A stretch of 22,040 nucleotides of DNA from an uncultured archaeon. Its GTDB lineage: Archaea; Iainarchaeota; Iainarchaeia; Iainarchaeales; CSSED10-239. The translations under genes and the position numbers were made by a program. The DNA lies in NCBI GenBank assembly GCA_964586355.1, contig CAZPGO010000047.1, forward strand, positions 1 through 22,040. The letters run 5' to 3'. Shown piece after piece: positions 8,133 through 22,040 of the stretch. Each line of letters starts with the position of its first letter. Positions within the stretch are counted from its first letter, which is position 1. The notes beneath the pieces were generated by a model. That model saw nothing but the letters and a program-made list of their open reading frames with translations. It was not told the DNA's origin and searched no databases.

Positions 8133-10054
8133 AAAAAATAACTATTGATTCCATTAATTATGATACTGTTGGTTTATGCTGTGGTTTAGAATTACATCAA
8201 CAATTGGATACTAATAAACTTTTTTGTAATTGTAGATCTAGATTAATAAAAGAAGATATAAAGCCAGATAAAATAATAATAAGGAAATTAAGACCAGTTT
8301 ATTCAGAATCAGGGGAAATAGATTTTGCTGCTGAGGATGAGAGAAAAAAACAAAAAACTTATACTTATTATTTTTATAATTCTTGTAACTGTTTAGTTGA
8401 CTCAGATTCTCAACCACCAATAACCATAAATCAAGAGGCTTTAAAAATTGCTTTGGTGGTTTCAAAATTAACCAATAGTAAGCTAGTTGATAAATCTATT
8501 GTTATGCGAAAACAAGTAGTTGATGGTTCAAATGTTTCTGGTTTTCAAAGAACTACAATGATTTCTACTGATGGTTTCTTGAATTTTGATTTTGGAAAAG
8601 TAAGGATTGATAAAATACTTTTAGAAGAAGATTCTGCAAGGGCTATTGAAAAAAAAGAAAATGAAGTTATATATTCTCTAGACAGATTAGGTATTCCATT
8701 AATAGAACTAGTTGTTTGGCATGATATGCACACCCCAGAGCAAGTAAAAGAAGTCGCACTAAATGTTGGACGTTTGTTTCGCCTAACGGGCTTTGCAAAA
8801 AGAGGCCTTGGTTCTATTCGTCAGGATATTAATATTTCTATTAAAGATGGGCAAAGAGTTGAGATAAAGGGTTGTCAAGAATTAGATTTGATTCCAGAAA
8901 TTGTTAATAGAGAGATTATTAGGCAACTTAGTTTATTGGAAGTTAAAAAAGAACTAAATGACAGAGAGTTATCCCTTTTTACTCTTAAAGAGCAAAATCT
9001 TAGTGAAGTTTTTAAGCAAACAGAATCTAAGGTCATAAAAAGTTCTTTAGAAAAAAAAAAAGAGATCTATGGTTTTTTAATACCAAAAATGAAAGGAATC
9101 TTAGGTTATGAGATTCAGCCCAACAGAAGGGTTGGTAGTGAGATCTCTAGTTACCTAAAAGCAAAAACTTCTCTTAAAGGTCTTTTTCATAGTGACGAAT
9201 TACCTAACTATGGAATTTTAGAAAAAGAAATTGAAATGGTTTCAAAAAAATTAATTCTTAAAGAAAATGATGCTTTTATTTTGGTTGTGTGTAATTCTAA
9301 AGAAATAGAGTTAGTAAAAAAGGTTATAGAGGATAGATTAAACAAATTATTAGAAGGAGTTTTAAAAGAAACCAGAATGGCAAAACCGGATGGCAACACA
9401 GAGTTTGCAAGAGAGCTCTCTTCTGGTGCTAGAATGTATCCAGAGACTGATGTTTTGCCTATTGAGTTTACAAAAGATTTGTTAGATGTGGTTAATTTGT
9501 CTATTCCTTTGTCTATTGGTAAGAGAAGAGAGTTATATCTTAATAATTTTAAAATAAGTGAACAGTTAGCAAAAAAAATGTATTGTGATAATTATGCAAT
9601 GACTTTTGAAAAGATTGTAAAAAAATATAATAGAAATCCAACACAAGTAGCTGTCTTTTTGTTAGAAGATTTAATAAATCTATCAAGAGATAATAAAATA
9701 GTTTTAGAAAATGTTTCTAGCCAAAAACTTTTAGAATTTTTTGCATATAAAGATTTTGACAAAATTCCTAAATCAAAAATTTTAGGTGTTTTCGTTTATT
9801 TTTTAGAGAATGATTGTTTGGTAAGTGATGCTATTAATGATTTAAATATTTTTAAAGATGCTTCTAAAATTGATCTAGAATCTATTATTGACAAAATCTT
9901 TTTAGAATATTCTAAAAACATAAAAGAACAAAAAGAAAGATCTTTAGGTCTATTAATGGGAAAAACAATGGCAGCTACTAAAGGGCTAATTGATGGAAAG
10001 ATCATTTCTCAAAAAATAAATTCTAAGCTTTCGGATTTTTTAAAAGATCTTTGA
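8129..10054 (+). CDS. gatE: Glutamyl-tRNA(Gln) amidotransferase subunit E
   Basis: The N-terminus 'GLCCGLELHQQLDTNKLFCNC' matches the GatB/GatE cradle. 'GSIRQDINISI' and 'YPETD' motifs are present. The 641-aa size is consistent with the GatE-specific insertion and C-terminal tail domain. Translationally coupled to gatD. Confidence 0.92.
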   Translation: MKKITIDSINYDTVGLCCGLELHQQLDTNKLFCNCRSRLIKEDIKPDKIIIRKLRPVYSESGEIDFAAEDERKKQKTYTYYFYNSCNCLVDSDSQPPITINQEALKIALVVSKLTNSKLVDKSIVMRKQVVDGSNVSGFQRTTMISTDGFLNFDFGKVRIDKILLEEDSARAIEKKENEVIYSLDRLGIPLIELVVWHDMHTPEQVKEVALNVGRLFRLTGFAKRGLGSIRQDINISIKDGQRVEIKGCQELDLIPEIVNREIIRQLSLLEVKKELNDRELSLFTLKEQNLSEVFKQTESKVIKSSLEKKKEIYGFLIPKMKGILGYEIQPNRRVGSEISSYLKAKTSLKGLFHSDELPNYGILEKEIEMVSKKLILKENDAFILVVCNSKEIELVKKVIEDRLNKLLEGVLKETRMAKPDGNTEFARELSSGARMYPETDVLPIEFTKDLLDVVNLSIPLSIGKRRELYLNNFKISEQLAKKMYCDNYAMTFEKIVKKYNRNPTQVAVFLLEDLINLSRDNKIVLENVSSQKLLEFFAYKDFDKIPKSKILGVFVYFLENDCLVSDAINDLNIFKDASKIDLESIIDKIFLEYSKNIKEQKERSLGLLMGKTMAATKGLIDGKIISQKINSKLSDFLKDL

Positions 10055-10061
10055 TTTTTTT
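10055..10061 (+). terminator. Oligo-T tract directly after the gatE stop (archaeal-type terminator candidate)
   Basis: Seven consecutive T directly follow TGA at 10052-10054. Archaeal RNA polymerase terminates at oligo-T. T runs are common in this AT-rich DNA, so specificity is low. Confidence 0.3.
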
Positions 10062-10127
10062 ATTAAAGGAAACATTAATAAATAGTATTTCATTATATAT
10101 TTATAATATTAAAATAAGATTTTAAAC

Positions 10128-10883
10128 ATGGCTCAAAAACAAAAATTTATAGAAAACAAAAATTCTGCTACTTATAAGAACAATCCAAAAATAAGAGAAA
10201 AAAAAAGAAAAAAAATCTCTCCACACACAAAAAAAGATCTTTCAGCAAAACTAAATAGAAATGGTCATACTACAAAGAGAATTGCTGGTAATATTTTACA
10301 AAACAATCCTAAAAAATTAGCTACATTAGATTATAGTGATCCTGTGTCTATAAGAAATCATTTGAATAAAGAAAACTCTAATAAAAAGTTTAAAAATAAA
10401 ATTTTTAATCAAGATACTTATTCTAGATTTCTATATTATCCTGCAATCATATTATTTTTAAGTCTCTTGATAGACTTTGTTTTACAATTTGTTGTTTATG
10501 GTGTTGTGGACCCGATCTTTGTAAATATTGCAAAAAATAGTTTGTTTTTTGTAACTGTTGCTTTCTTTTTAATGGCAACCAATATTTCTTGTTATTTATA
10601 TCTTGGTTTTTCTGGAGCAAAATACAATTATAAATTTTGGAAAGTTTTTAAAAAAGTGTTATTATTGGTTTTAGCTTTTATTTTGATAGAAGGAATTTTT
10701 ACAGTTCTTGCATACTATACTTTTTTACAACCATATCTTTTACACACTTTTAGTAGTTTAGCAATAAGAAAATCTTATCTTCTTTATTTAATACTTTGGA
10801 TATTGTTAAAGGCAATAATGTATCTTTTGTTTATGTTGTCTTCATATTTTGTTTTTTATAAACTTAAATTTGTTAAAATTTAG
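10128..10883 (+). CDS. Membrane protein with a long lysine-rich cytoplasmic N-terminal tail, unknown function
   Basis: The first 100 aa or so are strongly basic and low-complexity ('REKKRKKISPHTKK...'). About 5 hydrophobic TM segments follow. No family recognised. Confidence 0.55.
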   Translation: MAQKQKFIENKNSATYKNNPKIREKKRKKISPHTKKDLSAKLNRNGHTTKRIAGNILQNNPKKLATLDYSDPVSIRNHLNKENSNKKFKNKIFNQDTYSRFLYYPAIILFLSLLIDFVLQFVVYGVVDPIFVNIAKNSLFFVTVAFFLMATNISCYLYLGFSGAKYNYKFWKVFKKVLLLVLAFILIEGIFTVLAYYTFLQPYLLHTFSSLAIRKSYLLYLILWILLKAIMYLLFMLSSYFVFYKLKFVKI

Positions 10884-10897
10884 GGGTTTTTAAATAA

Positions 10898-11416
10898 ATG
10901 ATTGTAAAAAAAAAACTAAAAAGTCTTTATGCTCCTTGGAGAAAAAAATATATTTTAGGTTCTCTAGAAAATAAGGATAATTCTAAAGCCTGTCCTTTTT
11001 GTAAAACAGATGAAGAACATCAGGTTTTTGAAACTAAAAAAACCATGATAAGATCAAATAAATTTCCTTATTCTTCTGGTCATCTTTTGGTTATTCCTAA
11101 AAGACATATTAACGATATTACTAATCTAACCACAAAAGAGAGCGAAGAGTTATTTAATCTAATAAATCTTAGTGTTTATCTTTTAGACATATATATGAAA
11201 CCAGATGGATATAATATAGGTTGTAGTGTGGGAAAAATAGCTGGGGAAAGTATAGATCACCTACATTTTCATATTTTGCCAAGATTTGCTGGAGATGTTG
11301 GTTGGAATAGATTAGGGGATTTTAATGTGATTAGTGAATCTCCTAAGGAGACTACAAAAAATCTAAAAAAAATAATAAAAGAGCAAAGATTACCTAAAAA
11401 GTTCGGTATTTATTAG
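10898..11416 (+). CDS. HIT-family nucleotide hydrolase/transferase (Ap4A phosphorylase-like subgroup)
   Basis: Histidine-triad motif 'HLHFHILPR'. 'GHLLVIPKRH' is present, along with the N-terminal 'APWRKKYI' that I associate with the Ap4A-phosphorylase-like HIT branch. Confidence 0.82.
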   Translation: MIVKKKLKSLYAPWRKKYILGSLENKDNSKACPFCKTDEEHQVFETKKTMIRSNKFPYSSGHLLVIPKRHINDITNLTTKESEELFNLINLSVYLLDIYMKPDGYNIGCSVGKIAGESIDHLHFHILPRFAGDVGWNRLGDFNVISESPKETTKNLKKIIKEQRLPKKFGIY

Positions 11417-11512
11417 TTTTTCTAATTAGAGATAGGAATTTAAATATAATTTACTATATATATATTATAAGTTTTAAAAAAGAATGTTAATTTAGAAGGA
11501 TTTGGTGGAAAA

Positions 11513-12022
11513 ATGATGACAATTTTAAAGAGATTTAGAAAAAAAATCTCTGGCAAAGGCTCTGTAGAGATTGATGATGATATTGTAAGAGAAGCGAAAA
11601 GAAGCTCAGAAAAATCAATAATGGATTATAAGGACTACAGATCAAAGGATATTTCTTGGTTAGAAAATCACCTACATGCAACAGAAGAAGTAATAGTTGA
11701 AAATAAATTTGGTGCAAAAAACAAAGCTCAGTTTTTGGTTGATGGGTATAAGTTTTTTAAGGATGAAGTTACTGCTGAATTATTAAACAGACTTTTTGAA
11801 AACTATAATGCTTATCATATTAATCTAAAAAAATATATTTCTTTAAGAAAAGAGTTATTAGAATACTCTAATCTAAATTCAGATGATAGTGTTTTTGCTG
11901 CAGGTCATGTAAAAGATACTGAAGATCAATTAAAGGGTTTTGAAAAGAAATTAAATGTTTATTTAGATAATATAAATAGATTAAAAAAAAGAATAAGAGA
12001 AACAGTAGGTTTAAACAAATAA
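11513..12022 (+). CDS. Hypothetical soluble protein, predicted helical/coiled-coil C-terminus
   Basis: Long ORF with a GGTGG Shine-Dalgarno-like motif upstream. Charged and helical in character ('LKGFEKKLNVYLDNINRLKKRIRE'). No motif recognised. Confidence 0.55.
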   Translation: MMTILKRFRKKISGKGSVEIDDDIVREAKRSSEKSIMDYKDYRSKDISWLENHLHATEEVIVENKFGAKNKAQFLVDGYKFFKDEVTAELLNRLFENYNAYHINLKKYISLRKELLEYSNLNSDDSVFAAGHVKDTEDQLKGFEKKLNVYLDNINRLKKRIRETVGLNK

Positions 12023-12047
12023 TTTTTAAAGGTGTTGTGAGAAGTTT

Positions 12048-12509
12048 ATGAAATATTTTATGCAAACAGCCATACTTGAAAGCATAAAAAGCATTTCAAA
12101 ATCAGGCGGTCCATTTTCTGCATTGATTGTGAAAAATGGCAAAATAATTTCTGTAGGTCATAATGAAGTTGCAAAAAAAAATGACCCTACTGCTCATGCT
12201 GAGATTATTGCTATTAGAAAAGCTTGTAAGAAATTAAACACATTTAATTTGTCTGGTTGTGAGATCTATGCCAGCAGTTATCCATGTTCTATGTGTTTAT
12301 CTGCTATTGCTTGGGCAAGAATAAAAAAAGTCTATTATTTTTTTGATTTAGATCATGCTCATAGTTCTAAATTTGATGATCAAGAAATCTACAATTTTAT
12401 AAATAATAAAAAATCTAAAATAAAAATGAAAATAGAAAAAGTAGATTTTGCAATAGAAGAGGATCCATTTGAGATCTGGAATAAAAAAAAGGATAAAATA
12501 AAATATTAG
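12048..12509 (+). CDS. guaD: Guanine deaminase-like CDA-fold nucleoside/base deaminase
   Basis: Zinc motifs 'HAE' and 'PCSMC'. It is colinear with my memory of B. subtilis GuaD: 'GGPF.A.IVK.G.II', 'DPTAHAE..AIRKACK', 'FDD..IY', and a C-terminal 'PF..W' tail. 153 aa. Confidence 0.75.
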   Translation: MKYFMQTAILESIKSISKSGGPFSALIVKNGKIISVGHNEVAKKNDPTAHAEIIAIRKACKKLNTFNLSGCEIYASSYPCSMCLSAIAWARIKKVYYFFDLDHAHSSKFDDQEIYNFINNKKSKIKMKIEKVDFAIEEDPFEIWNKKKDKIKY

Positions 12510-12528
12510 TTATTAAGTGATTATTTTT

Positions 12529-13527
12529 ATGTCGTCGTTAGGATATATAATTTTACTATTAATTTTAATACTTCTTTCTGGTTTTTTTTCTAGTGCTGAA
12601 ACAGCATTAATGTCTATTCATTTTATAAAAATAAAGTCATTAGTTAAAAAGAAAAGACCAGGTGCTAAAGTTTTATTGAAACTAAAAAAGCACCCTCATT
12701 ATTTGATAATTACTCTTTTAATTGGTAATAATATAGTAAATATTTTTGCAACAGCAATAGCAACTTATTTGTTTATCAATTGGTTTGGTGTTGGTGGTGC
12801 TGCAATTTCAGCAATTGTTATGACTGTTGTAATATTAATATTTGGAGAGATTCTTCCAAAAACTATTGCTATTCAAAACTTTGAAAAAGTTTCTTTGGCT
12901 GTTGCCACACCGATAAATATTTTGTTAAAAATTTTTTATCCATTAGTAAAGCTTTTTTCCGCATTAACTCTTACTCTAAATAAGGTAATAAAACCAACAA
13001 CTACACACAATATTTCAGAAGACGAGCTAAAAGTAATTTTAACTCTTGGTAAGCAAGAGGGTGTTTTAAGTAAAGATGTTGCAAAAATGATGCATAATGT
13101 TTTGGAGTTTGAAGATACTAAGGTTACTAAGGTTATGACTCCAATAGAGAAAGTGAAACTTGTTGATGGTAATCTAAAAATTGAAGAGGTAATTGACTTT
13201 ATTGTAAAGCACTCTTTTTCAAGATATCCTGTATACTTAGAAAACAAAGATGATGTTATTGGTGTTTTAGATGTTGATGATGTTCTAAAAGCTATAAAAG
13301 AAAAAAAAGGATCTTCTTTAGTAAAGGATCTAATAAGACCAGTAGAGTTTGTTTTGCCAACAAAGGAGCTAGCAGATATCCTTTATGACTTTGAAGATAG
13401 ATCTGTATTAATGGCTATTGTTGTTGATGGAGAAGGAGAGGTTTTAGGTCTTTTAACAGTTGAAGATATTTTAGAAGAAATTGTTGGAGATATTTTTGAT
13501 AAGAGTAATAAAAAGAGAAAAAAGTAA
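12529..13527 (+). CDS. DUF21 (CNNM-type transmembrane) plus CBS-pair protein; putative Mg2+/Co2+ transport mediator lacking the CorC_HlyC domain
   Basis: N-terminal 4-TM DUF21 with 'FFSSAETALMS' and 'GEILPKT'. A CBS pair follows ('VMTPIEKV...', 'VVDGEGEVLGLLTVEDILEEIVGDI'). The track starts at GTG 12517; ATG 12529 is the more likely start. The protein ends right after the CBS pair. Confidence 0.85.
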   Translation: MSSLGYIILLLILILLSGFFSSAETALMSIHFIKIKSLVKKKRPGAKVLLKLKKHPHYLIITLLIGNNIVNIFATAIATYLFINWFGVGGAAISAIVMTVVILIFGEILPKTIAIQNFEKVSLAVATPINILLKIFYPLVKLFSALTLTLNKVIKPTTTHNISEDELKVILTLGKQEGVLSKDVAKMMHNVLEFEDTKVTKVMTPIEKVKLVDGNLKIEEVIDFIVKHSFSRYPVYLENKDDVIGVLDVDDVLKAIKEKKGSSLVKDLIRPVEFVLPTKELADILYDFEDRSVLMAIVVDGEGEVLGLLTVEDILEEIVGDIFDKSNKKRKK

Positions 13528-13574
13528 TATTTTAATTGTTCTTATAAATGTTTGCATAATCTATTTATTCTATT

Positions 13575-14906
13575 ATGATTAATAAAATATCTCTCTCCCC
13601 ATTGATCGCCACGATCTTACTTATTGTTGTTACTGTTGTATTAGCAACCATAATTTTAACCTGGGGAAAAGATCTAGTTACTTCTTCTGTTCAAAATACT
13701 GATTCAATAACTAAAACTAATCTTTTTAGTGACAGACAATATTCTATTAGATTTTTAGAAGCAAAAAATGGCAGATATTTTTTTGATTATCATTCACCAC
13801 CTAGTGATGTTGAGTTTACTGTTGTTAGTTATGCTTATGTTGGTTATCCATATGTTCCTTTAGAACCAGAAAAAACAATAAGTTCCCAAGGCAGATTCTA
13901 TTTAGATCTTGGTATTGTTGATGAAGATCGTTTTAGTATTTCTTTACTTTTAGATGATGGAAGTTATTTAAATTTTGAAAATGTAACTAATGTTAATAGA
14001 TCTCCTTCTCCAAGTGATTGTCCTGTAGGTTATATTCCAGTACCTGGTAATCATCTATATGGAACTGTTGGATCAAAAGGCGGATTTTGTGTTATGAAAT
14101 ATGAGGCAAAAGTTGATGAGGATGGTGACGGGATTGGAGATGTTAATGCTACATGTCAAAATTCTAATTTTGGAACTTGGAATAATAATGGTGCTAGTTG
14201 TAGTTATACTTTAAATAATAGAGTTATTGTTTCAAGTGCTGTTGGATATCCATTAGCAACAATTTCATTACTAGAATCTATTACTGCTTGTGAATCTATT
14301 AATAGTAATTTAATAACAAATGATGAGTGGATGACAATTGCAAGAAATATTGAAAGAGTTTCAAGTAATTGGTCAAGTAATATAATTGGTACTGGATATA
14401 TTTATTCAGGACATAGTGATAATTTACCTCCGGCTGCATTAGCTTCCAATATAAATGATAATAATGGTTATTATTTAACTGGTCAAACAACTGGTAATCA
14501 AAAAAGAACTTTAATTTTAAATAATGGAGAAATCATTTGGGATTTTGCTGGTAATGTGTTTGAAAATAGTGAAGATATGAATTCTTTTTATTTAAGTACT
14601 TATTATGATAATTTTGCTGATTGGACAGAAATTGAATACTCTGATTTTTATAAATTTAGTTTTGAAGATTTAGGGTTAAAAGGTTATAAAGGTAATTTTT
14701 TATTAAATTCAGATTATAATAGTGATGCTGGTGTTGGTAGAACCAGGGGTGTTAGACATAATAATCCTTATAGAGATACAGCCCTTATTAGAAGTGGTTA
14801 TTGGAATGGCACTTCTGGTGCTGGTATTTTGAGTTTAGATGTAGGTGATAATCCTACTGGTAGATTTTCAACAGTTGGGTTTCGTTGCGTATATTATCCA
14901 GAATGA
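13575..14906 (+). CDS. Archaeal type IV pilin-like (class III signal peptide) surface protein with a C-terminal FGE-sulfatase/SUMF1-like (C-type-lectin-fold) domain
   Basis: N-terminus 'MINKIS|LSPLIATILLIVVTVVLATIILTWGKD' matches the archaeal pilin/flagellin N-terminal signature. The C-terminal half carries 'GFCVMKYEAK', 'ITACESINSNLITNDEWMTIARN', 'IWDFAGNVFE' and a terminal 'VGFRCV'. Their order matches FGE-sulfatase domain motifs as I recall them. Confidence 0.8.
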   Translation: MINKISLSPLIATILLIVVTVVLATIILTWGKDLVTSSVQNTDSITKTNLFSDRQYSIRFLEAKNGRYFFDYHSPPSDVEFTVVSYAYVGYPYVPLEPEKTISSQGRFYLDLGIVDEDRFSISLLLDDGSYLNFENVTNVNRSPSPSDCPVGYIPVPGNHLYGTVGSKGGFCVMKYEAKVDEDGDGIGDVNATCQNSNFGTWNNNGASCSYTLNNRVIVSSAVGYPLATISLLESITACESINSNLITNDEWMTIARNIERVSSNWSSNIIGTGYIYSGHSDNLPPAALASNINDNNGYYLTGQTTGNQKRTLILNNGEIIWDFAGNVFENSEDMNSFYLSTYYDNFADWTEIEYSDFYKFSFEDLGLKGYKGNFLLNSDYNSDAGVGRTRGVRHNNPYRDTALIRSGYWNGTSGAGILSLDVGDNPTGRFSTVGFRCVYYPE

Positions 14907-14950
14907 TCTAATGCTTATTCTAAAAACCAACTAGATGCTTTTCTTTTCGT
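14889..14950. repeat. Direct repeat copy A (62 bp), left boundary of the LamG-pilin cassette
   Basis: 'gtatattatccagaat' is 16/16 identical to 16088-16103. 'ttattctaaaaaccaactagatgcttttcttttcgt' is 34/36 identical to 16117-16152 (hand-counted). The two blocks are separated by a non-matching 10-nt versus 13-nt core. Confidence 0.85.
14915..14950 (-). pseudogene. Relic of the last 11 codons plus stop of the 156-aa gene (paralogous to 16117-16152)
   Basis: The reverse complement reads TKRKASSWFLE*, against TKRKAPSWFLE* at the true 3' end of CDS 16117..16587. Upstream of this the similarity stops. The track ORF 14915..15100 is therefore not a gene. Confidence 0.7.
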
Positions 14951-14953
14951 AAT

Positions 14954-14979
14954 CTTTTTATATGTTTTCTTCTTTTTAT
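14954..14979 (+). promoter_or_regulatory. Conserved promoter module (TATA-like 'ctttttatat' plus downstream T-rich block) of the LamG-pilin gene
   Basis: 'ctttttatatgttttcttctttttat' is identical to 21901-21926, upstream of the third pilin gene. The TATA-like element lies about 25-30 nt before ATG 14985, which implies a leaderless or very short-leader archaeal transcript. Confidence 0.6.
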
Positions 14980-14984
14980 ATATT

Positions 14985-15965
14985 ATGTTTTTATTTAAGA
15001 AATCAGTTTCTCCCTTGATCGCAACAATCTTAATAATAGTTATTAGTGTTATATTGATCACTGTTGTTTTAAGTTGGGGAAAAAATTTTACAGAAAACAA
15101 ATTAAGTTCTTCAACTATTTCTACAGAAAAAGATCTAGAATATGTTACTCTTCCAAAAAGTTATATTTTATCATCTCATTTTCCTAATTACAATTCTATT
15201 CTTTTACAAAATACTAGTGATAAAAACATTACTGTTGTTAGTTATAAGTTAATAAGTCCAAATAACAATTATAAATATTTAAATAAAGACATAAATGTTG
15301 ATTCTTTTAATATTTTTCCAGGAGAATTAAAACCATTTCCTATTATTTGTTTTCCAGATGAAACATTTATTTTGTTATTAAAAACAGATAAAGATCAATA
15401 CATTTCTGTTAATATTAATACTGGTTATTTAAAATATTCTGGTTATTGTTTAGGAGAAAGTGGTTTAATATTTAGAGAAGATTTTGATTCAGAAGAAGCT
15501 GTTATTGAAAATGGGGGTGCTCCATTAAATGTAATTTATGAAAATGGTGTTGGGATTTTTAATGGCACGAGTAGTTATATTATATATAATAAACCATTAA
15601 ATGGAACTTATACTTTTAGAATAATTATTAAAGATTTTGTTTTAAATGATTATAAATATCTAATGAGTAGATACCCAGATACTTCTGGAACTGTTGGTTA
15701 TATTAATTTAATGGCAGACGGAACATTAAGAAATGATGCTTTTGATACAAAATATATTAATGGTGTTGAAAGTAGTGTTATTACAAATACAGATCATACA
15801 GAATTAGTAATTAGTGGCATTTCATTTAATTTTCTAAAATTTGTTGTTGGTGCGATGAGAAATTTGTCTTCTGCAAGTATTTTTAACGGCAAAATAGAAT
15901 TATTTGAAATCTACAACAGAACACTTACAGCTGATGAGATTAAAACTTTATATGATTATAATTAA
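14985..15965 (+). CDS. Archaeal type IV pilin-like (class III signal peptide) surface protein with a C-terminal LamG/concanavalin-A-like lectin domain
   Basis: N-terminus 'MFLFKKS|VSPLIATILIIVISVILITVVLSWGKN'. The C-terminal 160 aa or so carry 'IFNGTSSYIIY', 'FTFRIIIKDF' and 'VVGAMRN....IFNGKIELFEIYNRTLTADEIKTLY'. This matches the Laminin_G_3-type pattern (F.G...y; l.iG; f.G.idev.iynraLsa.EI..ly). Confidence 0.8.
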   Translation: MFLFKKSVSPLIATILIIVISVILITVVLSWGKNFTENKLSSSTISTEKDLEYVTLPKSYILSSHFPNYNSILLQNTSDKNITVVSYKLISPNNNYKYLNKDINVDSFNIFPGELKPFPIICFPDETFILLLKTDKDQYISVNINTGYLKYSGYCLGESGLIFREDFDSEEAVIENGGAPLNVIYENGVGIFNGTSSYIIYNKPLNGTYTFRIIIKDFVLNDYKYLMSRYPDTSGTVGYINLMADGTLRNDAFDTKYINGVESSVITNTDHTELVISGISFNFLKFVVGAMRNLSSASIFNGKIELFEIYNRTLTADEIKTLYDYN

Positions 15966-15971
15966 TTTTTT
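15966..15971 (+). terminator. Oligo-T tract after the LamG-pilin stop
   Basis: Six T directly follow TAA at 15963-15965. Specificity is low in AT-rich DNA. Confidence 0.25.
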
Positions 15972-16087
15972 ATGATCTCAATATTAAAAAAATAATATTT
16001 TTATAAGAGAAAATAATTAATTATATTATAGATCACTATATGAATTATAAAAATTTATCTGAATTGATAAGTATTGATTTTTTTACT

Positions 16088-16152
16088 GTATATTATCCAG
16101 AATAAGCTTTAATTATTTATTCTAAAAACCAACTAGGTGCTTTTCTTTTTGT
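16088..16152. repeat. Direct repeat copy B (65 bp), right boundary of the LamG-pilin cassette
   Basis: Partner of 14889-14950. It begins with a relic of the last five codons of the FGE-pilin gene ('gta tat tat cca gaa t' = VYYPE plus the first stop base). It ends inside the true 3' end of CDS 16117..16587. Confidence 0.85.
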
Positions 16153-16587
16153 CCATTTTGCAAAATCTGCTTTTTCTTTTTTATAATATTTTCTATATGC
16201 TTTTATTGCATTTTTTTCTTTATATTCTTCAGGTGTAGCTTGAGCAAATTCTGTTAAACCAATATTTGGAAGATTTGGAATATTTTCTAAGATTTTTTTT
16301 ATTTCAATAGTTTTGTGTGTTTTTCCATATCTGTAAGTATATTCTTTTAATAGTTCTTTAAGATGTTCTAATAACCAAACATAATTTTCTTTAGATTCAT
16401 TTGCCCAAATAACACAAGGATGTTTTTCGTGTGTTTTTTTATATAAAAGATCTTTATACTTAGAATTAGTTAAATGATGTGCTGTTGAGAGAATTTGAGC
16501 AGACTCAACTATCATTTTTACTACATGTTTATCACAAAGCATTCTTGCTGCTTTTTTTGGATCTTTATCCAAAACAAATATTTGCAT
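16117..16587 (-). CDS. Conserved hypothetical protein (N-terminal 'LDKDPKKAARMLCDKHVVKMIVESAQILSTAHH' motif)
   Basis: Clean 156-aa ORF, 15 nt downstream of and co-oriented with the 69-aa gene. I recall the D.DP..AA..LCDKHVVKM..E.AQ.LS motif from uncharacterised proteins often encoded by phages, large viruses and scattered bacteria. I cannot name the family. Confidence 0.65.
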   Translation of the reverse strand: MQIFVLDKDPKKAARMLCDKHVVKMIVESAQILSTAHHLTNSKYKDLLYKKTHEKHPCVIWANESKENYVWLLEHLKELLKEYTYRYGKTHKTIEIKKILENIPNLPNIGLTEFAQATPEEYKEKNAIKAYRKYYKKEKADFAKWTKRKAPSWFLE

Positions 16588-16602
16588 TTTTAAACTCTTA
16601 TA

Positions 16603-16812
16603 TTAAAGCATATCCTTTGCCATACCTTTAACAGATCTTAAACACTTTTTGTGCCAATATTGCCCACCCCATTTTTTATCACACCCCGGTTGATTACAAA
16701 CAGCACAGGTTTCATGAGGGTATTTACAGTTTTCAAGATCTATTTGTGGTGTTTTTGTTTTTACTTCCTCTTTTGGTTTTTCTTTTTTTTTAAACATGTC
16801 TAATATTGCCAT
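16603..16812 (-). CDS. Small Cys/His-rich (putative zinc-binding) protein with a lysine-rich N-terminus
   Basis: 69 aa. 'CKYPHETCAVCNQPGCDKKWGGQYWHKKC' contains five Cys and two His in zinc-ribbon-like spacing. It starts 30 nt downstream of tRNA-Gln on the same strand. Confidence 0.55.
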   Translation of the reverse strand: MAILDMFKKKEKPKEEVKTKTPQIDLENCKYPHETCAVCNQPGCDKKWGGQYWHKKCLRSVKGMAKDML

Positions 16813-16842
16813 AATATTTTCCCTTTTTAATTAATTTTTTAT

Positions 16843-16915
16843 TAGCCCGAAGGAGATTCGAACTCCTGTCGCAAGATCCAGAGTCTTGCATGCTTGGCCA
16901 CTACACTATCGGGCT
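16843..16915 (-). tRNA. tRNA-Gln (anticodon CUG), 73 nt, no encoded CCA
   Basis: The reverse complement folds by hand into a cloverleaf. Acceptor AGCCCGA/TCGGGCT with discriminator A. D-arm GTGT-AGTGGCCAA-GCAT. Anticodon stem CAAGA/TCTTG with loop CTCTGGA (positions 34-36 = CTG). T-arm AGGAG-TTCGAAT-CTCCT. The segment is GC-rich in an AT-rich background. Confidence 0.93.
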
Positions 16916-16940
16916 CTATAATATTAATAAGTCTAATGGT

Positions 16941-17531
16941 TTAAAACTTTGTGTTTTTTATAATCCTATAAACATTTTTCCAATCATTAGCAATTTTTAT
17001 ATCTTTAGGATATTTGCTTTTTGACCAAGGATAGTTGTTATTATAATCAAAAACAATTGTTTTTATGTTGTGTTTGTAGCAATCCATAATATAGCTTTTA
17101 TTATCATCAACAATTAGATCTATATCATACTCTTTACAAAGCTCTCCTTTGTCTTTTACAAAATCCTCTGATTTGTAATATTCACTAAATATTATTTCTT
17201 TAAAAGTGTTTGGAAAATATTCTTTTATCCATTTATGGGTGTGGTTTTTTACATCAATAGTTCTTCCAGTAATTATATATAACTCATGTTCTTTTAGTAA
17301 TTTCCTGATTACTGTTTTTGCTTCAGGTATTGGTTTAAATTTTTTAATATCTTGATTGTTAAGAGTTTGTCTTATATACTTATAAAAAACATCTCTTTCT
17401 TCAAAGCTTAGATCCTCTAATGAATGATATCCTTTAAACCATTTTGTTTTATTTGCTTTAAATATTTCTTTTATAAGAAGTTCTATTGTTGAGACTAATG
17501 TATCGTCTAGGTCTATTGCTATTCTTGCCAT
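16941..17531 (-). CDS. HAD-superfamily 5'(3')-deoxyribonucleotidase-like phosphatase (NT5C-like)
   Basis: HAD motif I 'IAIDLDDTL' (DxDxT), motif II 'YIITGRT', and an acidic motif IV 'LIVDDN'. The 196-aa size and N-terminal context resemble the NT5C/YorS-type nucleotidases. Confidence 0.72.
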   Translation of the reverse strand: MARIAIDLDDTLVSTIELLIKEIFKANKTKWFKGYHSLEDLSFEERDVFYKYIRQTLNNQDIKKFKPIPEAKTVIRKLLKEHELYIITGRTIDVKNHTHKWIKEYFPNTFKEIIFSEYYKSEDFVKDKGELCKEYDIDLIVDDNKSYIMDCYKHNIKTIVFDYNNNYPWSKSKYPKDIKIANDWKNVYRIIKNTKF

Positions 17532-17591
17532 ATTTGAATCACTTTTATATAAAATATTTTATTCTAAGAATTCTTTAAATATTGATTGTTT

Positions 17592-18563
17592 TTAACAATA
17601 ATATTCAAAAGCCACATCTAGTAAATTAACATCTTTTACTATTTCAAAAAAATTAGATCTTAATACATTTATAAATCCGAAAACCTCTTCTTTAGAGTTG
17701 GTCTCAAGATCTATTTCTAGATCCCAAGGTCCAATAAATTTTCTTATATTTATTATATTTGTATTATTTTCAAAAAAGGTTATTAGTTCTTCTTCTTTAT
17801 GATCTTTTTCTGGATTTATTTTTAATAATATTTTATATGAAGAAAAAGGCAATTTTTTAAAATTAAATATTGGTCTGTAACTTTTTATAATTCCACAACA
17901 TTTTAATTGTTTTAATCTGCTTAAAACAGTGTTTGGTGTACTCTCTATTTCTTTTGCTAAAAACACTGAACTTATTCTTGCATGATTTTTAATATTGTAT
18001 AATATTTTTTTATCAATAGTATTTAGTTTTTCTATTTTTTTATCATAAAACTTATATTCTATTTTATTATTTAATCTTCTATATTTTTCTGTAAAATAAT
18101 CTCTACTAAAAGAAGTTTTTTCAAGTAATATAAAATAGTCTGTGTTAATAATTTCTTTTTTAAAGTTTATTTTTATATTTTTTATAAACTCATATGATTC
18201 TGATAAATTTTCTGTATAAAACTTAACAATAAGATCCCAATTAGAGGAATATACTTCTATTATTTTTATAGTTTGTTTTTTTGATCTTAAGTAATCTATT
18301 ATTTTTTGTTTATTTTCGTTTGTAGAGTTTAGCTTAAGATATATTTTATATATTGTGTTTCCTAATACACTATAATCAATACAAGAAATATATCCTTTAA
18401 TAATCTCCATAGCCTCTAAATTCTGTAATCTGTAGCTTATTACTTGTTGAGAGGTTTTAAGTTTCTTTGCAATTGTTGAAATGTTTTCTCTGGCATTTTG
18501 GTCTATTAATGAAAGTATTTTTAGATCTAAATAGTCTAATTTATAGCAACTTTTTGTACCCAT
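17592..18563 (-). CDS. Tandem (duplicated) Lrp/AsnC-family transcriptional regulator
   Basis: There are two HTH_AsnC-like units: 'LDLKILSLIDQNARENISTIAKKLKTSQQVISYRLQNLEAMEIIKGY' and 'IDKKILYNIKNHARISSVFLAKEIESTPNTVLSRLKQLKCCGIIKSY'. Each is followed by a RAM-like beta-alpha-beta segment of about 80 aa. Confidence 0.78.
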   Translation of the reverse strand: MGTKSCYKLDYLDLKILSLIDQNARENISTIAKKLKTSQQVISYRLQNLEAMEIIKGYISCIDYSVLGNTIYKIYLKLNSTNENKQKIIDYLRSKKQTIKIIEVYSSNWDLIVKFYTENLSESYEFIKNIKINFKKEIINTDYFILLEKTSFSRDYFTEKYRRLNNKIEYKFYDKKIEKLNTIDKKILYNIKNHARISSVFLAKEIESTPNTVLSRLKQLKCCGIIKSYRPIFNFKKLPFSSYKILLKINPEKDHKEEELITFFENNTNIINIRKFIGPWDLEIDLETNSKEEVFGFINVLRSNFFEIVKDVNLLDVAFEYYC

Positions 18564-18612
18564 TCTGTTTATGTTTAGTTTATTTTAGTATATATATTTA
18601 ATTATAGTTTAA

Positions 18613-20502
18613 TTATCTTTTAAAAAAACTAAGATACTCAGAATTAGGGTCTTTACTTATCTTAAATCTGTGATCTTTACTAAAACAGTTTCTATAGTTT
18701 TCCCAAAGGTATCTGTTATCCATATAAACAATTAACCCTTTGTCAGTATCAGACCTAATAACTCTACCAGCACTTTGAATTACTTTTTGTATTGCTGGTT
18801 GAATGTAAGCGTATTGCCAACCATTTCTATATTTTTTTTCATAGTAATCTATTTTGGCTTTGGTTTCTAGTTCCATTCTGGATAAAGGAATGCCAACAAT
18901 AACTGCTGAGATTAGGTTTGTTCCAGGAAGATCAATCCCTTCAGAAGCCTTACCCCCCATAACAGCAAAAAGAACAGCTCCAAATTTTCTGGATTCTAAT
19001 TTAAAGTCTTTAATCATTTTTTCAAAGTCTATACTTTTTTGTTTTTCTTCTTGTGTAAATATTGGTTTGTTTGATTTTATTTTTGTTTTGATCTCATATA
19101 ATATTTCAAAACTTGGAAAAAAAACAACTATATTTCCTGGACAGCTGTTTATACAATCATTAACATATTTTGAGATCTTTGTATATTCCTCATTTGATCT
19201 TTGTGTAAACTTAGTAGAGACATCAGAAATAAGTAGATTTACTTTGTTTTCTGGATTAAAAGGGGAAAGATATTCTACAAGATTTGTGTTCTCTTTTGGT
19301 AATCCTAAGATCTCTTGATACATCTTTAATGGTGTTAATGTTGCTGACATTAGTATTGTTGAATAAGCTGTTTCAAATATTTTTTTTGTAATTAATGTTA
19401 CATCTAAGGCATTATATTTTACGCTTATATAATTTCTTTCTTTTTTAATAAATCTAATATGATCTACTTTGTCAGTAATCCATTCTTCTAAAAAGATTGC
19501 TATAGAGATTAGCGCAGATCCATTTTCATTAAAGTTTTCTATATATTTTAGTCCTTCAGTTTCTAATTCTTCAATAACTTCAAACAAATTATTATCTAGG
19601 TCTTTAAAAAAGATTTGATTTTTTGTAATTAGTTGTTCTTTTTCTTTTTTTAAAAATGTTTCTGACAAAGACTCTATTTTATCTAAAAACTCTGTTAATA
19701 GGTTTTTTAGTTTTGAGTTTTTTAGATCTTTTGCTTCCTTAATTGCTCTATTTATTAGAAAGGTGTTTAGTGTTTTTGAGGACAATCTTAGTAATCTTTC
19801 TTCAAGGTTGTGTGCTTCATCAACAACAATAATACAATTTGAGAGATCAATATCTAGTTCTGGTAATGTTGATTTAGATACAGATCCTGAAAATACATGA
19901 TAATAATCTGCAATAATTACAGTAGACTCTCTAGCTTTCATTTTTGCAAGTTCATAAGCACAAAGAGGCTTTGGAGATCCATCAAATTCTGTGAAATTAC
20001 TAGCAATGTCTTTTATCTCTAGGTGTGTGTAGCTGTTATCTGGCAAAGCTTTTTTTATCCTTGCATTTAATCTCTCTCTTGCTGATTTTTCAGCAGGCCT
20101 AATATTTTCAAAATAGGGACATTCTCTTTTTTTTGTTGCTCTTTTGCAAATATCATAAAACCCTGCTTCTGTTTTTGAAATAACTGGATCTATACACATA
20201 TTTCTTTTACCCACAAAATCAATAGCATTAAGCTTAAGGTTGTATTTGTGATTAAGACCATTGATTACTTCAAGAGCTATTTTGTGTTGAGAGATCTTTG
20301 GTGTTAAAAACAAAACTTTTAGTTTATGTTCAATAGCATAAGTAACTGCTGCAGATAAGGAAGCATCTGTTTTTCCTGTTCCTGTTGGGGCGTGCAAAAG
20401 TATGTTTTTTTTATGTGATATACTTGTATAAATATCCTTAATTATTGTCTCTTGATCTTTTCTAAAAGACTTGTGTCTAAAGTAAATATTTTGTTTTGTC
20501 AT
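18613..20502 (-). CDS. xpd: XPD/Rad3-type superfamily-2 DNA helicase with a 4Fe-4S domain
   Basis: Walker A 'HAPTGTGKT', DEAH box 'VVDEAHNL', motif III 'MSATLTP', and motif VI 'QSAGRVIR'. Four Cys lie between motifs I and II ('NMCIDP', 'YDICKR', 'RECPYF', 'PLCAYE'), as in XPD Fe-S domains. Confidence 0.9.
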   Translation of the reverse strand: MTKQNIYFRHKSFRKDQETIIKDIYTSISHKKNILLHAPTGTGKTDASLSAAVTYAIEHKLKVLFLTPKISQHKIALEVINGLNHKYNLKLNAIDFVGKRNMCIDPVISKTEAGFYDICKRATKKRECPYFENIRPAEKSARERLNARIKKALPDNSYTHLEIKDIASNFTEFDGSPKPLCAYELAKMKARESTVIIADYYHVFSGSVSKSTLPELDIDLSNCIIVVDEAHNLEERLLRLSSKTLNTFLINRAIKEAKDLKNSKLKNLLTEFLDKIESLSETFLKKEKEQLITKNQIFFKDLDNNLFEVIEELETEGLKYIENFNENGSALISIAIFLEEWITDKVDHIRFIKKERNYISVKYNALDVTLITKKIFETAYSTILMSATLTPLKMYQEILGLPKENTNLVEYLSPFNPENKVNLLISDVSTKFTQRSNEEYTKISKYVNDCINSCPGNIVVFFPSFEILYEIKTKIKSNKPIFTQEEKQKSIDFEKMIKDFKLESRKFGAVLFAVMGGKASEGIDLPGTNLISAVIVGIPLSRMELETKAKIDYYEKKYRNGWQYAYIQPAIQKVIQSAGRVIRSDTDKGLIVYMDNRYLWENYRNCFSKDHRFKISKDPNSEYLSFFKR

Positions 20503-20503
20503 T

Positions 20504-21463
20504 TTATTCTAAGTAAATATTTCCAAATTCTTTATTGTATATAAAAAAGTCTTCAGTATTTGCATTTTCTTTAATATCACAAACCCTTTTTAGGGTAGCA
20601 TCTAAATTATCAGCAATAAAAACTAACATAGCTTCTGGGGTTGCTGGTTCTTTTGGAGATCCATATTCTTTTTTTCCATGGTGACTTAAGATGATGTTAA
20701 TTATTTTGTTTTTCTTATTCTCAGAAGTATTTAAAGACTCTAAAATTTGAGTGATTTTAGTTGCTCCTAATGTAATGTGCCCTATTAGTTGTCCAGGGTT
20801 TGTTATTTTTATATTGGAAGTGATCGTAAATTCTTCCATTTTTCCATAATCATGTAATAAAGCACCTGTTAAAAGTAGATTTCTATCTAATCTTTTTTCT
20901 GTTTTTTCATAATAATCTAAGCAAATATTACACACATTTATTGTATGTTCTAACAATCCGCCAATATACCCATGATGTAGATACATTGCTGCCGGAGCTG
21001 TAAAAAACTGTTTTTTAACTTCTTCAGTAAATGCTTTATTAAGCACTTCTTTATACTCAGGATCTGTTATTGATTCAATTAGTTCAGAAAATCTGTTTTT
21101 CAATTCTTCTAGATCTTTATCTGTTTTTGCAATCATTGATTCTAGATCAAAATCAGTTATTTTTTTAATATCGCAGTTATCGTTTATACTTAGTTCTAGT
21201 TGGTCGTTATAGTTATTTACTTTTATGTTATTTACTAGTATAACATTATCAATAGCTATAGAATCATACACTTTTTGAACAAGCTCTTTGTTAGGGCCTC
21301 CCCAATATTTTAGCATGATTTCTCCGGTTTTATCTCCTACTCTTACTTCAAATCTAAAACCTTTTGCATAATCTATAATTGGTTTTTTAAATTTTACAAC
21401 AAAATAGTCTTCAAATATTATTCCTTCTTTTAGATCTTTTATAAATATTTTTTTTTCTATCAT
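20504..21463 (-). CDS. OB-fold plus HD-domain nuclease/phosphohydrolase (YhaM/Cbf1-like 3'-5' exonuclease)
   Basis: The N-terminal 100 aa or so are OB-like ('FEVRVGDKTGEIMLKYWG'). An HD domain follows with 'HHGYIGGLLEHT', 'LLHDYGK', 'HHGKKEYGSP' and 'FIADNLDA'. Only 1 nt separates it from the downstream xpd. Confidence 0.8.
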   Translation of the reverse strand: MIEKKIFIKDLKEGIIFEDYFVVKFKKPIIDYAKGFRFEVRVGDKTGEIMLKYWGGPNKELVQKVYDSIAIDNVILVNNIKVNNYNDQLELSINDNCDIKKITDFDLESMIAKTDKDLEELKNRFSELIESITDPEYKEVLNKAFTEEVKKQFFTAPAAMYLHHGYIGGLLEHTINVCNICLDYYEKTEKRLDRNLLLTGALLHDYGKMEEFTITSNIKITNPGQLIGHITLGATKITQILESLNTSENKKNKIINIILSHHGKKEYGSPKEPATPEAMLVFIADNLDATLKRVCDIKENANTEDFFIYNKEFGNIYLE

Positions 21464-21547: not shown

Positions 21548-21860
21548 AAAAGAAAGCCTCGGGAAAGAACAAAAATGGTTACGCTTTCGTTGACACGCAA
21601 TATAACCGGTTACGCTCGGTTAATGTGCAATTATAAGTTTATGCAAAAACGAAATGAAAAGAAAGCCTTGGGAAAGAACAAAAAGGGTTTCGCTTATAAC
21701 CCTTTTAGAAAAAATGCTTAACCCCAAAATAAACTGTTTCATAAGAAGTGTAATCAAATAATTTTTTTCAAAAAAAGTTTAATCAAAAACGAGATAAAAG
21801 AAAGCTTAAGCAAAGAAAATAAAAAAATAATCAAAAATGAGATCAGAAAAAAATTATTAC
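21548..21860 (+). repeat. Degenerate direct repeats in a long spacer
   Basis: Units at 21548-21585 and 21657-21694 are 35/38 identical (hand-counted): 'aaaagaaagcctcgggaaagaacaaaaatggttacgct' versus 'aaaagaaagccttgggaaagaacaaaaagggtttcgct'. A decayed third copy starts at 21796 and a possible fourth near 21832. Units 2-4 are preceded by 'caaaaa(c/t)ga(a/g)at'. Nested 'ggttacgct' repeats occur at 21577 and 21608. Confidence 0.7.
21681..21706 (+). other. Perfect 9-bp stem / 8-nt loop hairpin inside repeat unit 2
   Basis: 'aaaagggtt' (21681-21689) pairs with 'aaccctttt' (21698-21706) around the loop 'tcgcttat'. Repeat unit 1 has only a weaker 5-bp version (ggtta...taacc). Confidence 0.5.
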
Positions 21861-21900
21861 TAAAACCTAGTAACTATCTATTTTTCTTATTTTTCGCAAC

Positions 21901-21926
21901 CTTTTTATATGTTTTCTTCTTTTTAT
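21901..21926 (+). promoter_or_regulatory. Conserved promoter module of the third pilin-like gene (identical to 14954-14979)
   Basis: 26/26 nt identity with the module upstream of the LamG-pilin gene. With flanks, 34/36 nt match from 21891. The TATA-like 'ctttttatat' lies about 25-30 nt upstream of ATG 21933. Confidence 0.6.
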
Positions 21927-21932
21927 TTAAAT

Positions 21933-22040
21933 ATGTTTCACAAGCGTTCTGTTTCTCCCTTAATCGCCACAATTTTATTAATAGTTGTTAGTGTAATATT
22001 AGTTACTGTTGTTTTAACTTGGGGATCAGACTTTGCAAAA
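21933..22040 (+). CDS. 5' end (36 codons) of a third archaeal type IV pilin-like protein, truncated by the window end
   Basis: Translates to 'MFHKRS|VSPLIATILLIVVSVILVTVVLTWGSDFAK'. In the 75 nt encoding VSP...WG, 65 are identical to the LamG-pilin gene (hand alignment, no indel). Confidence 0.8.
   Translation, partial: MFHKRSVSPLIATILLIVVSVILVTVVLTWGSDFAK

Follow-up and report, generated by a model that had tools for sequence, protein, structure and literature searches.

Several described systems leave direct repeats on both sides of an inserted gene. Tyrosine and Sulfolobus spindle-shaped virus (SSV)-type integrases, acting by a Campbell-type crossover, produce attL and attR copies of about 40-65 bp that bracket the insert, half of each restoring the end of a host gene. 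Transposons and casposons are immediately flanked by a duplication of the target, which is about 2-15 bp long in the known cases, and integron cassettes are single-gene units held between repeated sequences. Insertions templated by microhomology-mediated break-induced replication (MMBIR) or by fork stalling and template switching (FoSTeS) draw the insert from paralogous sequence, have short microhomology at the junctions and duplicate tens of bp of target without any enzyme of an element; they have been described mainly in eukaryotes and E. coli and are not known from DPANN archaea. In the diversity-generating retroelements (DGRs), for which C-type-lectin domains of the FGE type are classic targets, the initiation of mutagenic homing sequences IMH and IMH* are imperfect repeats at the ends of the variable repeat (VR) and the template repeat (TR) (PMC5758913). 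Here we analysed 22,040 nucleotides of DNA from an uncultured archaeon (contig CAZPGO010000047.1; this whole stretch is called the window), in which the gene of a LamG-type archaeal pilin of 326 aa (14985-15965, plus strand) is bracketed by direct repeats made from the 3' ends of its two neighbours. These are the gene of an FGE-sulfatase-type archaeal pilin with a C-type-lectin fold (443 aa; 13575-14906, plus strand) and the conserved gene of a 156-aa protein of the pyrimidine dimer DNA glycosylase family (Pyr_excise-like; 16117-16587, minus strand). Our reading, to which we give about an even chance of being correct, is that this structure is the scar of a recent one-off duplicative insertion without a transposase, likely by microhomology-mediated template switching, and that no active mobile element is involved. 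It is a known kind of rearrangement in a fresh example, which reveals no new system and makes no long-standing question testable.

Each of the described systems is matched by the locus in part. As with attL and attR, direct repeats of suitable length derived from one sequence bracket the insert and half of each corresponds to a host gene end. Unlike them, the repeat joins the 3' ends of two converging protein genes, the cargo is a single gene, the target is not a tRNA gene (the tRNA-Gln gene at 16843-16915, minus strand, lies outside the repeat), no second copy was present anywhere searched, and no integrase domain was detected in the 22-kb window or in about 4 kb of contig extension. The target-derived duplication directly beside the insert recalls transposons and casposons, but it measures 59-65 bp instead of a fixed short length, neither a transposase nor a casposase is encoded in the window or the extension, and no terminal inverted repeats were recognized, the best inverted match between the cassette ends being an AT-rich and not distinctive 68% over 56 nt (E = 0.003 with lenient scoring). 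An earlier note, made from the sequence alone, had already judged the duplication too long for a classical transposase, and we agree. Although a single-gene unit between repeats also resembles an integron cassette, the unit here has its own promoter and no array was seen, and there was no attC-type imperfect palindrome (folding z -0.2 to +0.8 against shuffles) and no IntI in the window and extension. Pilin families that diversify by recombination in a conserved 5' region, as in pilE/pilS gene conversion, are similar in that several pilin paralogues of the present genome, too, share a promoter (34/36 nt) and the signal-peptide part (about 85%) while the heads are unrelated; here, however, all copies are complete genes with promoters, and neither silent cassettes nor ongoing switching were found. 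The locus also resembles the MMBIR/FoSTeS insertions, with the difference that here the donor locus and the microhomology at the second junction were not identified.

The two repeat copies carry gene ends on both strands. Copy A (14889-14950) begins with GTA TAT TAT CCA GAA TGA (14889-14906), which encodes VYYPE and the stop and is the true end of the FGE-pilin ORF; it continues through a core of 10 nt (14905-14914) and finishes, on the minus strand of 14915-14950, with TKRKASSWFLE and a stop codon, a relic of the Pyr_excise-like gene that covers its last 11 codons and stop. In copy B (16088-16152) the roles are exchanged. VYYPE followed by TAA (16088-16105) lies outside any gene, the core has 13 nt (16104-16116), and the minus strand of 16117-16152 reads TKRKAPSWFLE and stop, the true 3' end of the Pyr_excise-like ORF. 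Global alignment of the copies matched the outer blocks at 16/16 and 34/36 nt, the repeat search reported 36 nt at 94% and an extension of the exact 16-nt block to 21 nt at 90%, and blastn between the copies gave E = 4e-14. Within the window the 36-mer (up to 3 mismatches) and the 16-mer (up to 2 mismatches) occurred at these two sites only, with 0.00 (100 shuffles) and 0.05 occurrences expected from shuffled sequence. Over its final 3 nt (CGT, 14948-14950) copy A corresponds better to the promoter module of the LamG-pilin gene than to the end of the Pyr_excise-like gene, and so the duplicated target is about 59-62 nt. The relics have drifted by 1-2 transitions in 52 nt since the event, whereas the 10-13-nt cores differ by four substitutions, all G:C in copy A and A:T in copy B, and by two small indels. 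The anatomy given in the earlier note was borne out by these comparisons, as was its statement that no integrase or transposase lies between the copies: the LamG-pilin gene is the sole ORF there, and Pfam searches found no recombinase domain and no second ORF with a match.

The same repeats and insert were recovered at 99.9-100% identity in eight independently assembled contigs from six or seven samples and two pipelines (JGI 3300077522, 3300077562, 3300077317, 3300001335 and 3300001533; Logan SRR2986055 and SRR1179181), two of these contigs differing by 3 SNPs in 17 kb. The structure is therefore not an assembly artefact. Further copies of the 62-bp segment were absent from the approximately 27 kb available, from the GTDB representative genomes and from IMG/VR, so this repeat is no widespread motif, a possibility that the earlier note had allowed for. 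The pattern scan of the GTDB representatives gave a single chance match, in Tenacibaculum, and that of metagenome contigs gave no match and did not return the source contig itself either. A function of the repeat as a hairpin or terminator was rejected because both strands of both copies folded no better than shuffles (z -0.2 to +0.8) and no Rfam family matched. A weak A/U-rich stem of 7-8 bp, pairing AGAATGA/AGAATAAG with TTATTCT, does span the core of both copies with a variable loop, and it has a trivial origin since both genes end in Glu-stop.

Genuine halves and relics were told apart by means of homologues. In an alignment, 19 homologues of the Pyr_excise-like protein, among them proteins of Methanococcus and of lineages without a pilin nearby, end in WTKRKxPxWF(LE), and at the DNA level they follow copy B up to and including the stop codon; the 36-nt block thus belongs to the Pyr_excise-like gene and copy A holds its relic. 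At both mismatch positions of the 36-nt blocks copy B agrees with the relatives. Pilin homologues of the FGE type, 13 of 14 of which match PF03781 (FGE-sulfatase) in the alignment, end almost uniformly in GFRCVVVPE and stop, so VYYPE is the genuine C-terminus of the pilin and copy B holds the relic. Taken together, the two relics require that a contiguous FGE-pilin/156-aa junction of 59-62 bp once existed and was then duplicated. The homologues thereby support the earlier suggestion that the copies are true duplicates of one junction.

Close relatives lack the whole region. The loci L010 and L011, from other samples and with a Pyr_excise protein 86% identical to that of the window (L numbers denote the fetched loci), align to window positions 8503-13514 at 94.6% and 16125-20505 at 92.6%, with 4 nt between the two blocks. 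The missing segment, about 13515-16124 or 2.6 kb, comprises both pilin units and both repeat copies. On its left the conserved anchor is the gene of a CNNM/CBS membrane protein (12517-13527, plus strand; Pfam CNNM 9e-52 and CBS), which in the relatives converges directly on the Pyr_excise-like gene, as it does in L029 at 83-87% DNA identity and, at about 70%, in L016, L020 and L024, where the pilins are likewise absent. The two genes even overlap tail to tail by 4-14 nt (14 nt in L010, 4371-4384; L020, 1915-1918; L024, 6474-6477), and both pilin units therefore entered a site with essentially zero intergenic DNA; both host genes kept intact reading frames despite the insertions. Given that relatives at 93-95% identity and more distant lineages alike have the CNNM gene facing the Pyr_excise-like gene, the 13515-16124 segment is, by comparison of the sequences, a lineage-specific insertion that postdates a nucleotide divergence of about 6%. 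Precise loss from the relatives is not credible, as it would recreate the arrangement of all distant lineages. The earlier note had taken the FGE-pilin gene facing the 156-aa gene for the ancestral state; on this phylogenetic distribution it can only have been an intermediate. An empty site does exist, but it lacks both pilins, and the one that the note had suggested looking for, with the FGE-pilin abutting the 156-aa gene at a single repeat, was not found. When the three proteins of the site (the 156-aa protein and the LamG- and FGE-pilins) were looked up by exact match, every return was this strain in an unchanged arrangement; the next relatives are already without both pilins. A LamG-only empty site, a deletion variant and a circular junction, the last two of which the note had suggested looking for in reads, were absent from all assembled contigs examined.

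The inserted LamG unit extends from a promoter module (14944-14984, plus strand) to an AT-rich 3' tail of 122 nt with T-runs (15966-16087, plus strand). CGTAATC and TTTTTATATG, the latter about 25 nt before the ATG, together occupy about 37-21 nt upstream of the LamG-pilin start and, by the general architecture of archaeal promoters, look like the transcription factor B recognition element (BRE) and TATA box of a leaderless gene. From 14944 onwards the sequence TTTTCGTAATCTTTTTATATGTTTTCTTCTTTTTAT is identical at 34/36 positions to 21891-21926 (plus strand), upstream of a third pilin gene that begins at 21935 and runs out of the window; both sites fit the 36-nt pattern TTTTCGYAAYCTTTTTATATGTTTTCTTCTTTTTAT, and this paralogous module is the best donor-side proxy at the left junction. 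Past the module, the signal-peptide coding region is still about 85% similar, and over 185 nt (14920-15104 versus 21867-22049) the match amounts to 76.8% (E = 7e-37). To the left of TTTTCG, copy A and the sequence upstream of the third pilin are not alike above chance: 184 of 500 shuffles reached the score, and a third copy of the 156-aa relic at 21867-21897 (about 68% by eye) was rejected on this basis. The end of copy A and the promoter module overlap in a TTTT(C/T)G microhomology. Since C14948 of copy A is shared with the promoter module but differs from copy B and the relatives, the two block mismatches place the crossover in the shared T-run at about 14944-14947 and leave one change in 33 nt in the genuine relic. 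The left junction is thus chimeric, as the earlier note had proposed, with the relic passing into the promoter module through a short shared T-run. At the right junction the tail abuts GTATATT without visible microhomology to the target. The tail is not a decayed 3' region of the FGE-pilin gene (local score 16, shuffle mean 15.2; 180 of 500 shuffles reached it), nor does it resemble a DGR template repeat significantly.

The ancestral arrangement was the CNNM gene converging directly on the Pyr_excise-like gene. As the comparison with relatives shows, an FGE-pilin transcription unit entered between the two stop codons and created the FGE-pilin/156-aa junction; in an order suggested by the relics, a complete LamG unit, from BRE/TATA to T-rich tail, would then have been copied into this junction, with about 59-62 bp of the target remaining on either side. 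Where that unit begins, with promoter and signal-peptide part, it is a close paralogue of the third pilin gene of the same genome. As the process we propose a template switch during replication, or an illegitimate recombination mediated by microhomology, of the MMBIR/FoSTeS type: synthesis would depart from the target in the T-run within the 156-aa gene's end, copy the pilin unit and re-enter the target about 60 bp behind the exit, whereby the interval would be duplicated. A single template-switch event could therefore account at once for insert, flanking duplication and chimeric left junction. Such a duplicative insertion by the host's own replication or recombination machinery is preferred because a transposon, an integron cassette and an integrative element each fail in their defining features. 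The shared TTTT(C/T)G could supply breakpoint microhomology at the left junction, while the right junction lacks a donor for comparison; a template elsewhere may be reflected in the 5' 185 nt, with their 77% identity to the third pilin locus, and the LamG body is without a donor match.

The same population carries another short duplication. In L038 (JGI 3300001533, MLSed) a perfect 32-nt tandem duplication, GAGAGGTTTTAGGTCTTTTAACAGTTGAAGAT twice, occupies 936-967 (window 13436-13467), inside the 3' part of the CNNM gene and about 90 nt from the pilin insertion site. It is polymorphic, shifts the frame and cuts the protein to 316 aa. Short duplications of the replication type therefore do arise in this population.

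Several points weigh against template switching. The 5.8 billion proteins searched yielded no donor for the LamG unit, and the intermediate genome with the FGE-pilin alone facing the 156-aa gene was not found either. The microhomology is a T-run in a T-rich genome (G+C of the window 27%), which is weak evidence alone, and to our knowledge MMBIR-type events have not been demonstrated in archaea. Finally, the core has diverged far more than the relics, which uniform decay after duplication does not predict. The probability of such a core was estimated at P of about 0.06 from the distribution of substitutions and about 0.01 from the relic rate, with the core free to evolve in both copies and each block in one copy only. 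The AT-rich spacer may be prone to slippage, synthesis may have been mutagenic at the time of the insertion, or the donor segment may have been heterologous.

The last of these possibilities leads to the explanation offered by the earlier note, a Campbell-type (ends-in) homologous integration, in which a circle carrying the LamG unit and the 62-bp junction, perhaps from a sister strain, would enter by a single crossover and leave hybrid copies. Direct repeats flanking the insert are exactly the topology expected, and a donor segment from a diverged strain would account for a differing core beside matching blocks; yet a strain that shares the blocks should not have a core diverged by about 40%, and identity blocks of 16 and 34 nt are short for efficient homologous recombination. 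The circle would also have to join the junction segment to the LamG unit beforehand, which moves the origin of the structure elsewhere and leaves it unexplained, and neither a circle nor an empty site nor a second copy of the segment was detected in assembled contigs, GTDB or IMG/VR; the only site resembling attB is the one lacking both pilins together. We regard this route as unlikely. Less probable still is a model in which the FGE unit, along with the 156-aa gene's 3' end, was duplicated in tandem and most of the second copy was then replaced by the LamG gene through recombination in the conserved 5' region of the pilins. The pilin N-termini are collinear, two repeat matches are both spaced by 1413, the two proteins are 36% identical over 90 aa, and tandem duplications occur in the population. 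A simple tandem duplication is nevertheless excluded, because the non-coding relics (94-100% identical) are far more alike than the pilin 5' regions (69-71%; 69% for 13542-13673 versus 14956-15086) and because the junction leads to a promoter of the third-pilin type, not of the FGE type. With a replacement added, at least three events are needed; the start of the replacement must coincide exactly with the junction of the duplication, and its other end requires an illegitimate join at 16087/16088.

The segment might instead be an attachment site and the LamG unit a minimal mobilisable cassette moved by a recombinase acting in trans, comparable to an integron cassette or to a satellite of an integrative element. 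A single-gene cargo between direct repeats of tens of bp, the weak AGAAT(G/A)A...TTATTCT stem with its variable loop across both cores, and the fact that the same site took two pilin insertions would fit. We hold this to be very unlikely all the same: the approximately 27 kb contain no integrase, the stem folds no better than shuffles and follows trivially from the Glu-stop ends, the segment is present nowhere else in the contig, the GTDB representatives or IMG/VR, the repeat is built of the neighbours' own coding ends, and no excision variants were seen in assembled contigs. A broader version, that promoter-bearing pilin units form a class of mobile cassettes in Pacearchaeota-like DPANN archaea, inserted repeatedly at 3'-3' convergent junctions with duplications of about 60 bp by a trans-acting recombination system, is a still longer shot. 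If true, the first trace of that class would be that one site received pilin insertions twice, independently, within about 6% divergence, and cassette mobility would shuffle the surface adhesins by which episymbionts hold their hosts. A scan of all fetched loci for pilin ORFs with flanking direct repeats found only the present case, with three other pilin loci available. The interpretation as a DGR remnant, with copy A as the IMH end of the VR of an FGE/CLec-type pilin and copy B as the IMH* end of a decayed TR, is effectively refuted. The target family is the one known for DGRs in DPANN archaea, the extreme 3' end of the target gene forms part of the repeat, and pilin-family homologues adjoin bAvd genes (L031) or a GC-rich inverted repeat (L034); but the approximately 27 kb covered encode no reverse transcriptase and no Avd, and they hold no second copy of the last 511 nt of the FGE-pilin gene, hence no template repeat matching its last approximately 500 nt. 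The homology moreover runs the wrong way from the stop codon, ending 16 nt before it instead of extending upstream and continuing downstream into the neighbouring gene, where the larger block is the genuine Pyr_excise-like end conserved in pilin-less relatives. Adenine-specific (A-to-N) differences were not seen between the copies.

The locus is a clean, datable case of the gain of surface adhesins in a genome-reduced DPANN archaeon. Two pilin units, with C-type-lectin/FGE-like and LamG heads, were added at one junction since the split from a relative of about 94% identity, and the scar of the second insertion is still legible. The second insertion equipped the cell with one more pilin that is transcribed independently and has another adhesive head, and the ends of both neighbouring genes stayed intact. 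The attachment of episymbionts to their hosts is attributed to pilins, so that rapid pilin turnover bears on host range. The case also shows that long flanking duplications can arise in archaea without a transposase, a caution for annotators to whom direct repeats flanking a gene signal a mobile element.

Judged from the gene content, which includes archaeal amidotransferase subunits of the GatD/GatE type and pilins with archaeal class III signal peptides, and from the closest named homologues, which belong to Candidatus Pacearchaeota and other metagenome-assembled genomes labelled 'archaeon', the source is a Pacearchaeota-like DPANN archaeon. Beyond the Pyr_excise-like gene (PF03013, 6e-11; 1681 homologues), which is the right anchor of the site, follow a 69-aa gene, the tRNA-Gln gene, and NT5C, helix-turn-helix regulator, helicase and HD genes. 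The LamG-pilin matched Laminin_G_3 (1.3e-4) and, like the FGE-pilin, Pilin_N at E = 0.004-0.006, which is below the gathering score (about 18 bits versus a cutoff of 25.2). Both nevertheless have a predicted class III signal peptide and hydrophobic helix of archaeal type IV pilins, with an N-terminal motif SPLIATIL(L/I)IV shared by more than 100 homologues, and the pilin-family profile matched the N-terminus of the archaeal flagellin 8fk7 at 1e-5. The best database matches of the two pilins are 58-59% identical, neither has an orthologue in the 94%-identical relatives, and IMG/VR contains no close relatives that would suggest a viral origin.

For the LamG-pilin only 7 homologues were found, the nearest at 59% identity over 59% of the query and none above this identity among the 5.8 billion proteins. 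The nearest is encoded in L030 (JGI 3300001335, contig ML8_10029384), downstream of a DUF5018 protein and an aminoacyl-tRNA synthetase fragment, and hence in a different context. L030 was rejected as a guide to the cassette boundaries, since its 70% DNA identity covers 14970-15587 and leaves promoter and tail unmatched. Its sample series also holds ML8_10001221 (22,036 nt), which is 100% identical to the window over 7.3 kb, and a co-occurring relative could for this reason be a source of such pilin genes. The relic in copy A is in frame with an ORF of 61 aa (14915-15100, minus strand) antisense to the LamG-pilin promoter and signal-peptide region, which is probably meaningless, and a 19-aa ORF, MNYKNLSELISIDFFTVYYPE, ends in the pilin relic of copy B (16043-16105).

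The left junction of the FGE-pilin unit (13528-13574, plus strand) contains a putative promoter with TATA-like CTTATAAATG about 30 nt before the ATG. An 11-nt match there, TATTTATTCTA at about 13556-13566, was considered as a vestigial third repeat copy and rejected, as it aligns with the promoter-proximal element of the other pilins; it is treated as chance or promoter homology. Just downstream of the FGE-pilin stop codon the 156-aa relic provides a T-rich stretch, GCTTTTCTTTT, which could act as an archaeal terminator for this gene. Of the FGE-type pilin homologues of 55-58% identity, one is followed by two bAvd/23S_rRNA_IVP genes (L031, 9539-10253) and another has the GC-rich inverted repeat immediately after its stop codon (L034, 1541-1640); either feature is a hallmark of genes targeted by DGRs. 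Near the FGE-pilin gene of the window neither bAvd genes nor such an inverted repeat were present, and this gene may be a former DGR target.

The third pilin gene (window 21935-22040, continuing in L006 16925-18651) is split by a frameshift into an ORF of 62 aa with the signal peptide and an ORF of 538 aa in another frame, which contains about 10 tandem 66-nt repeats encoding DIADLPSGLTYYYNTGSNTTTG. The frameshift could reflect a pseudogene, a sequencing error or phase variation. A motif of 28-39 nt, CTTAAAAAGAAAGYCTNGGGAAAGAA, with a CTTTCTT/AAGAAAG hairpin and without an Rfam match even at E <= 1, occurs three times upstream of this gene (21548-21586, 21657-21695 and 21796-21834) and three times downstream (L006 18821, 18914 and 18985), against 0.01 expected from shuffles. 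All of these copies sit in unusually G+C-rich intergenic DNA.

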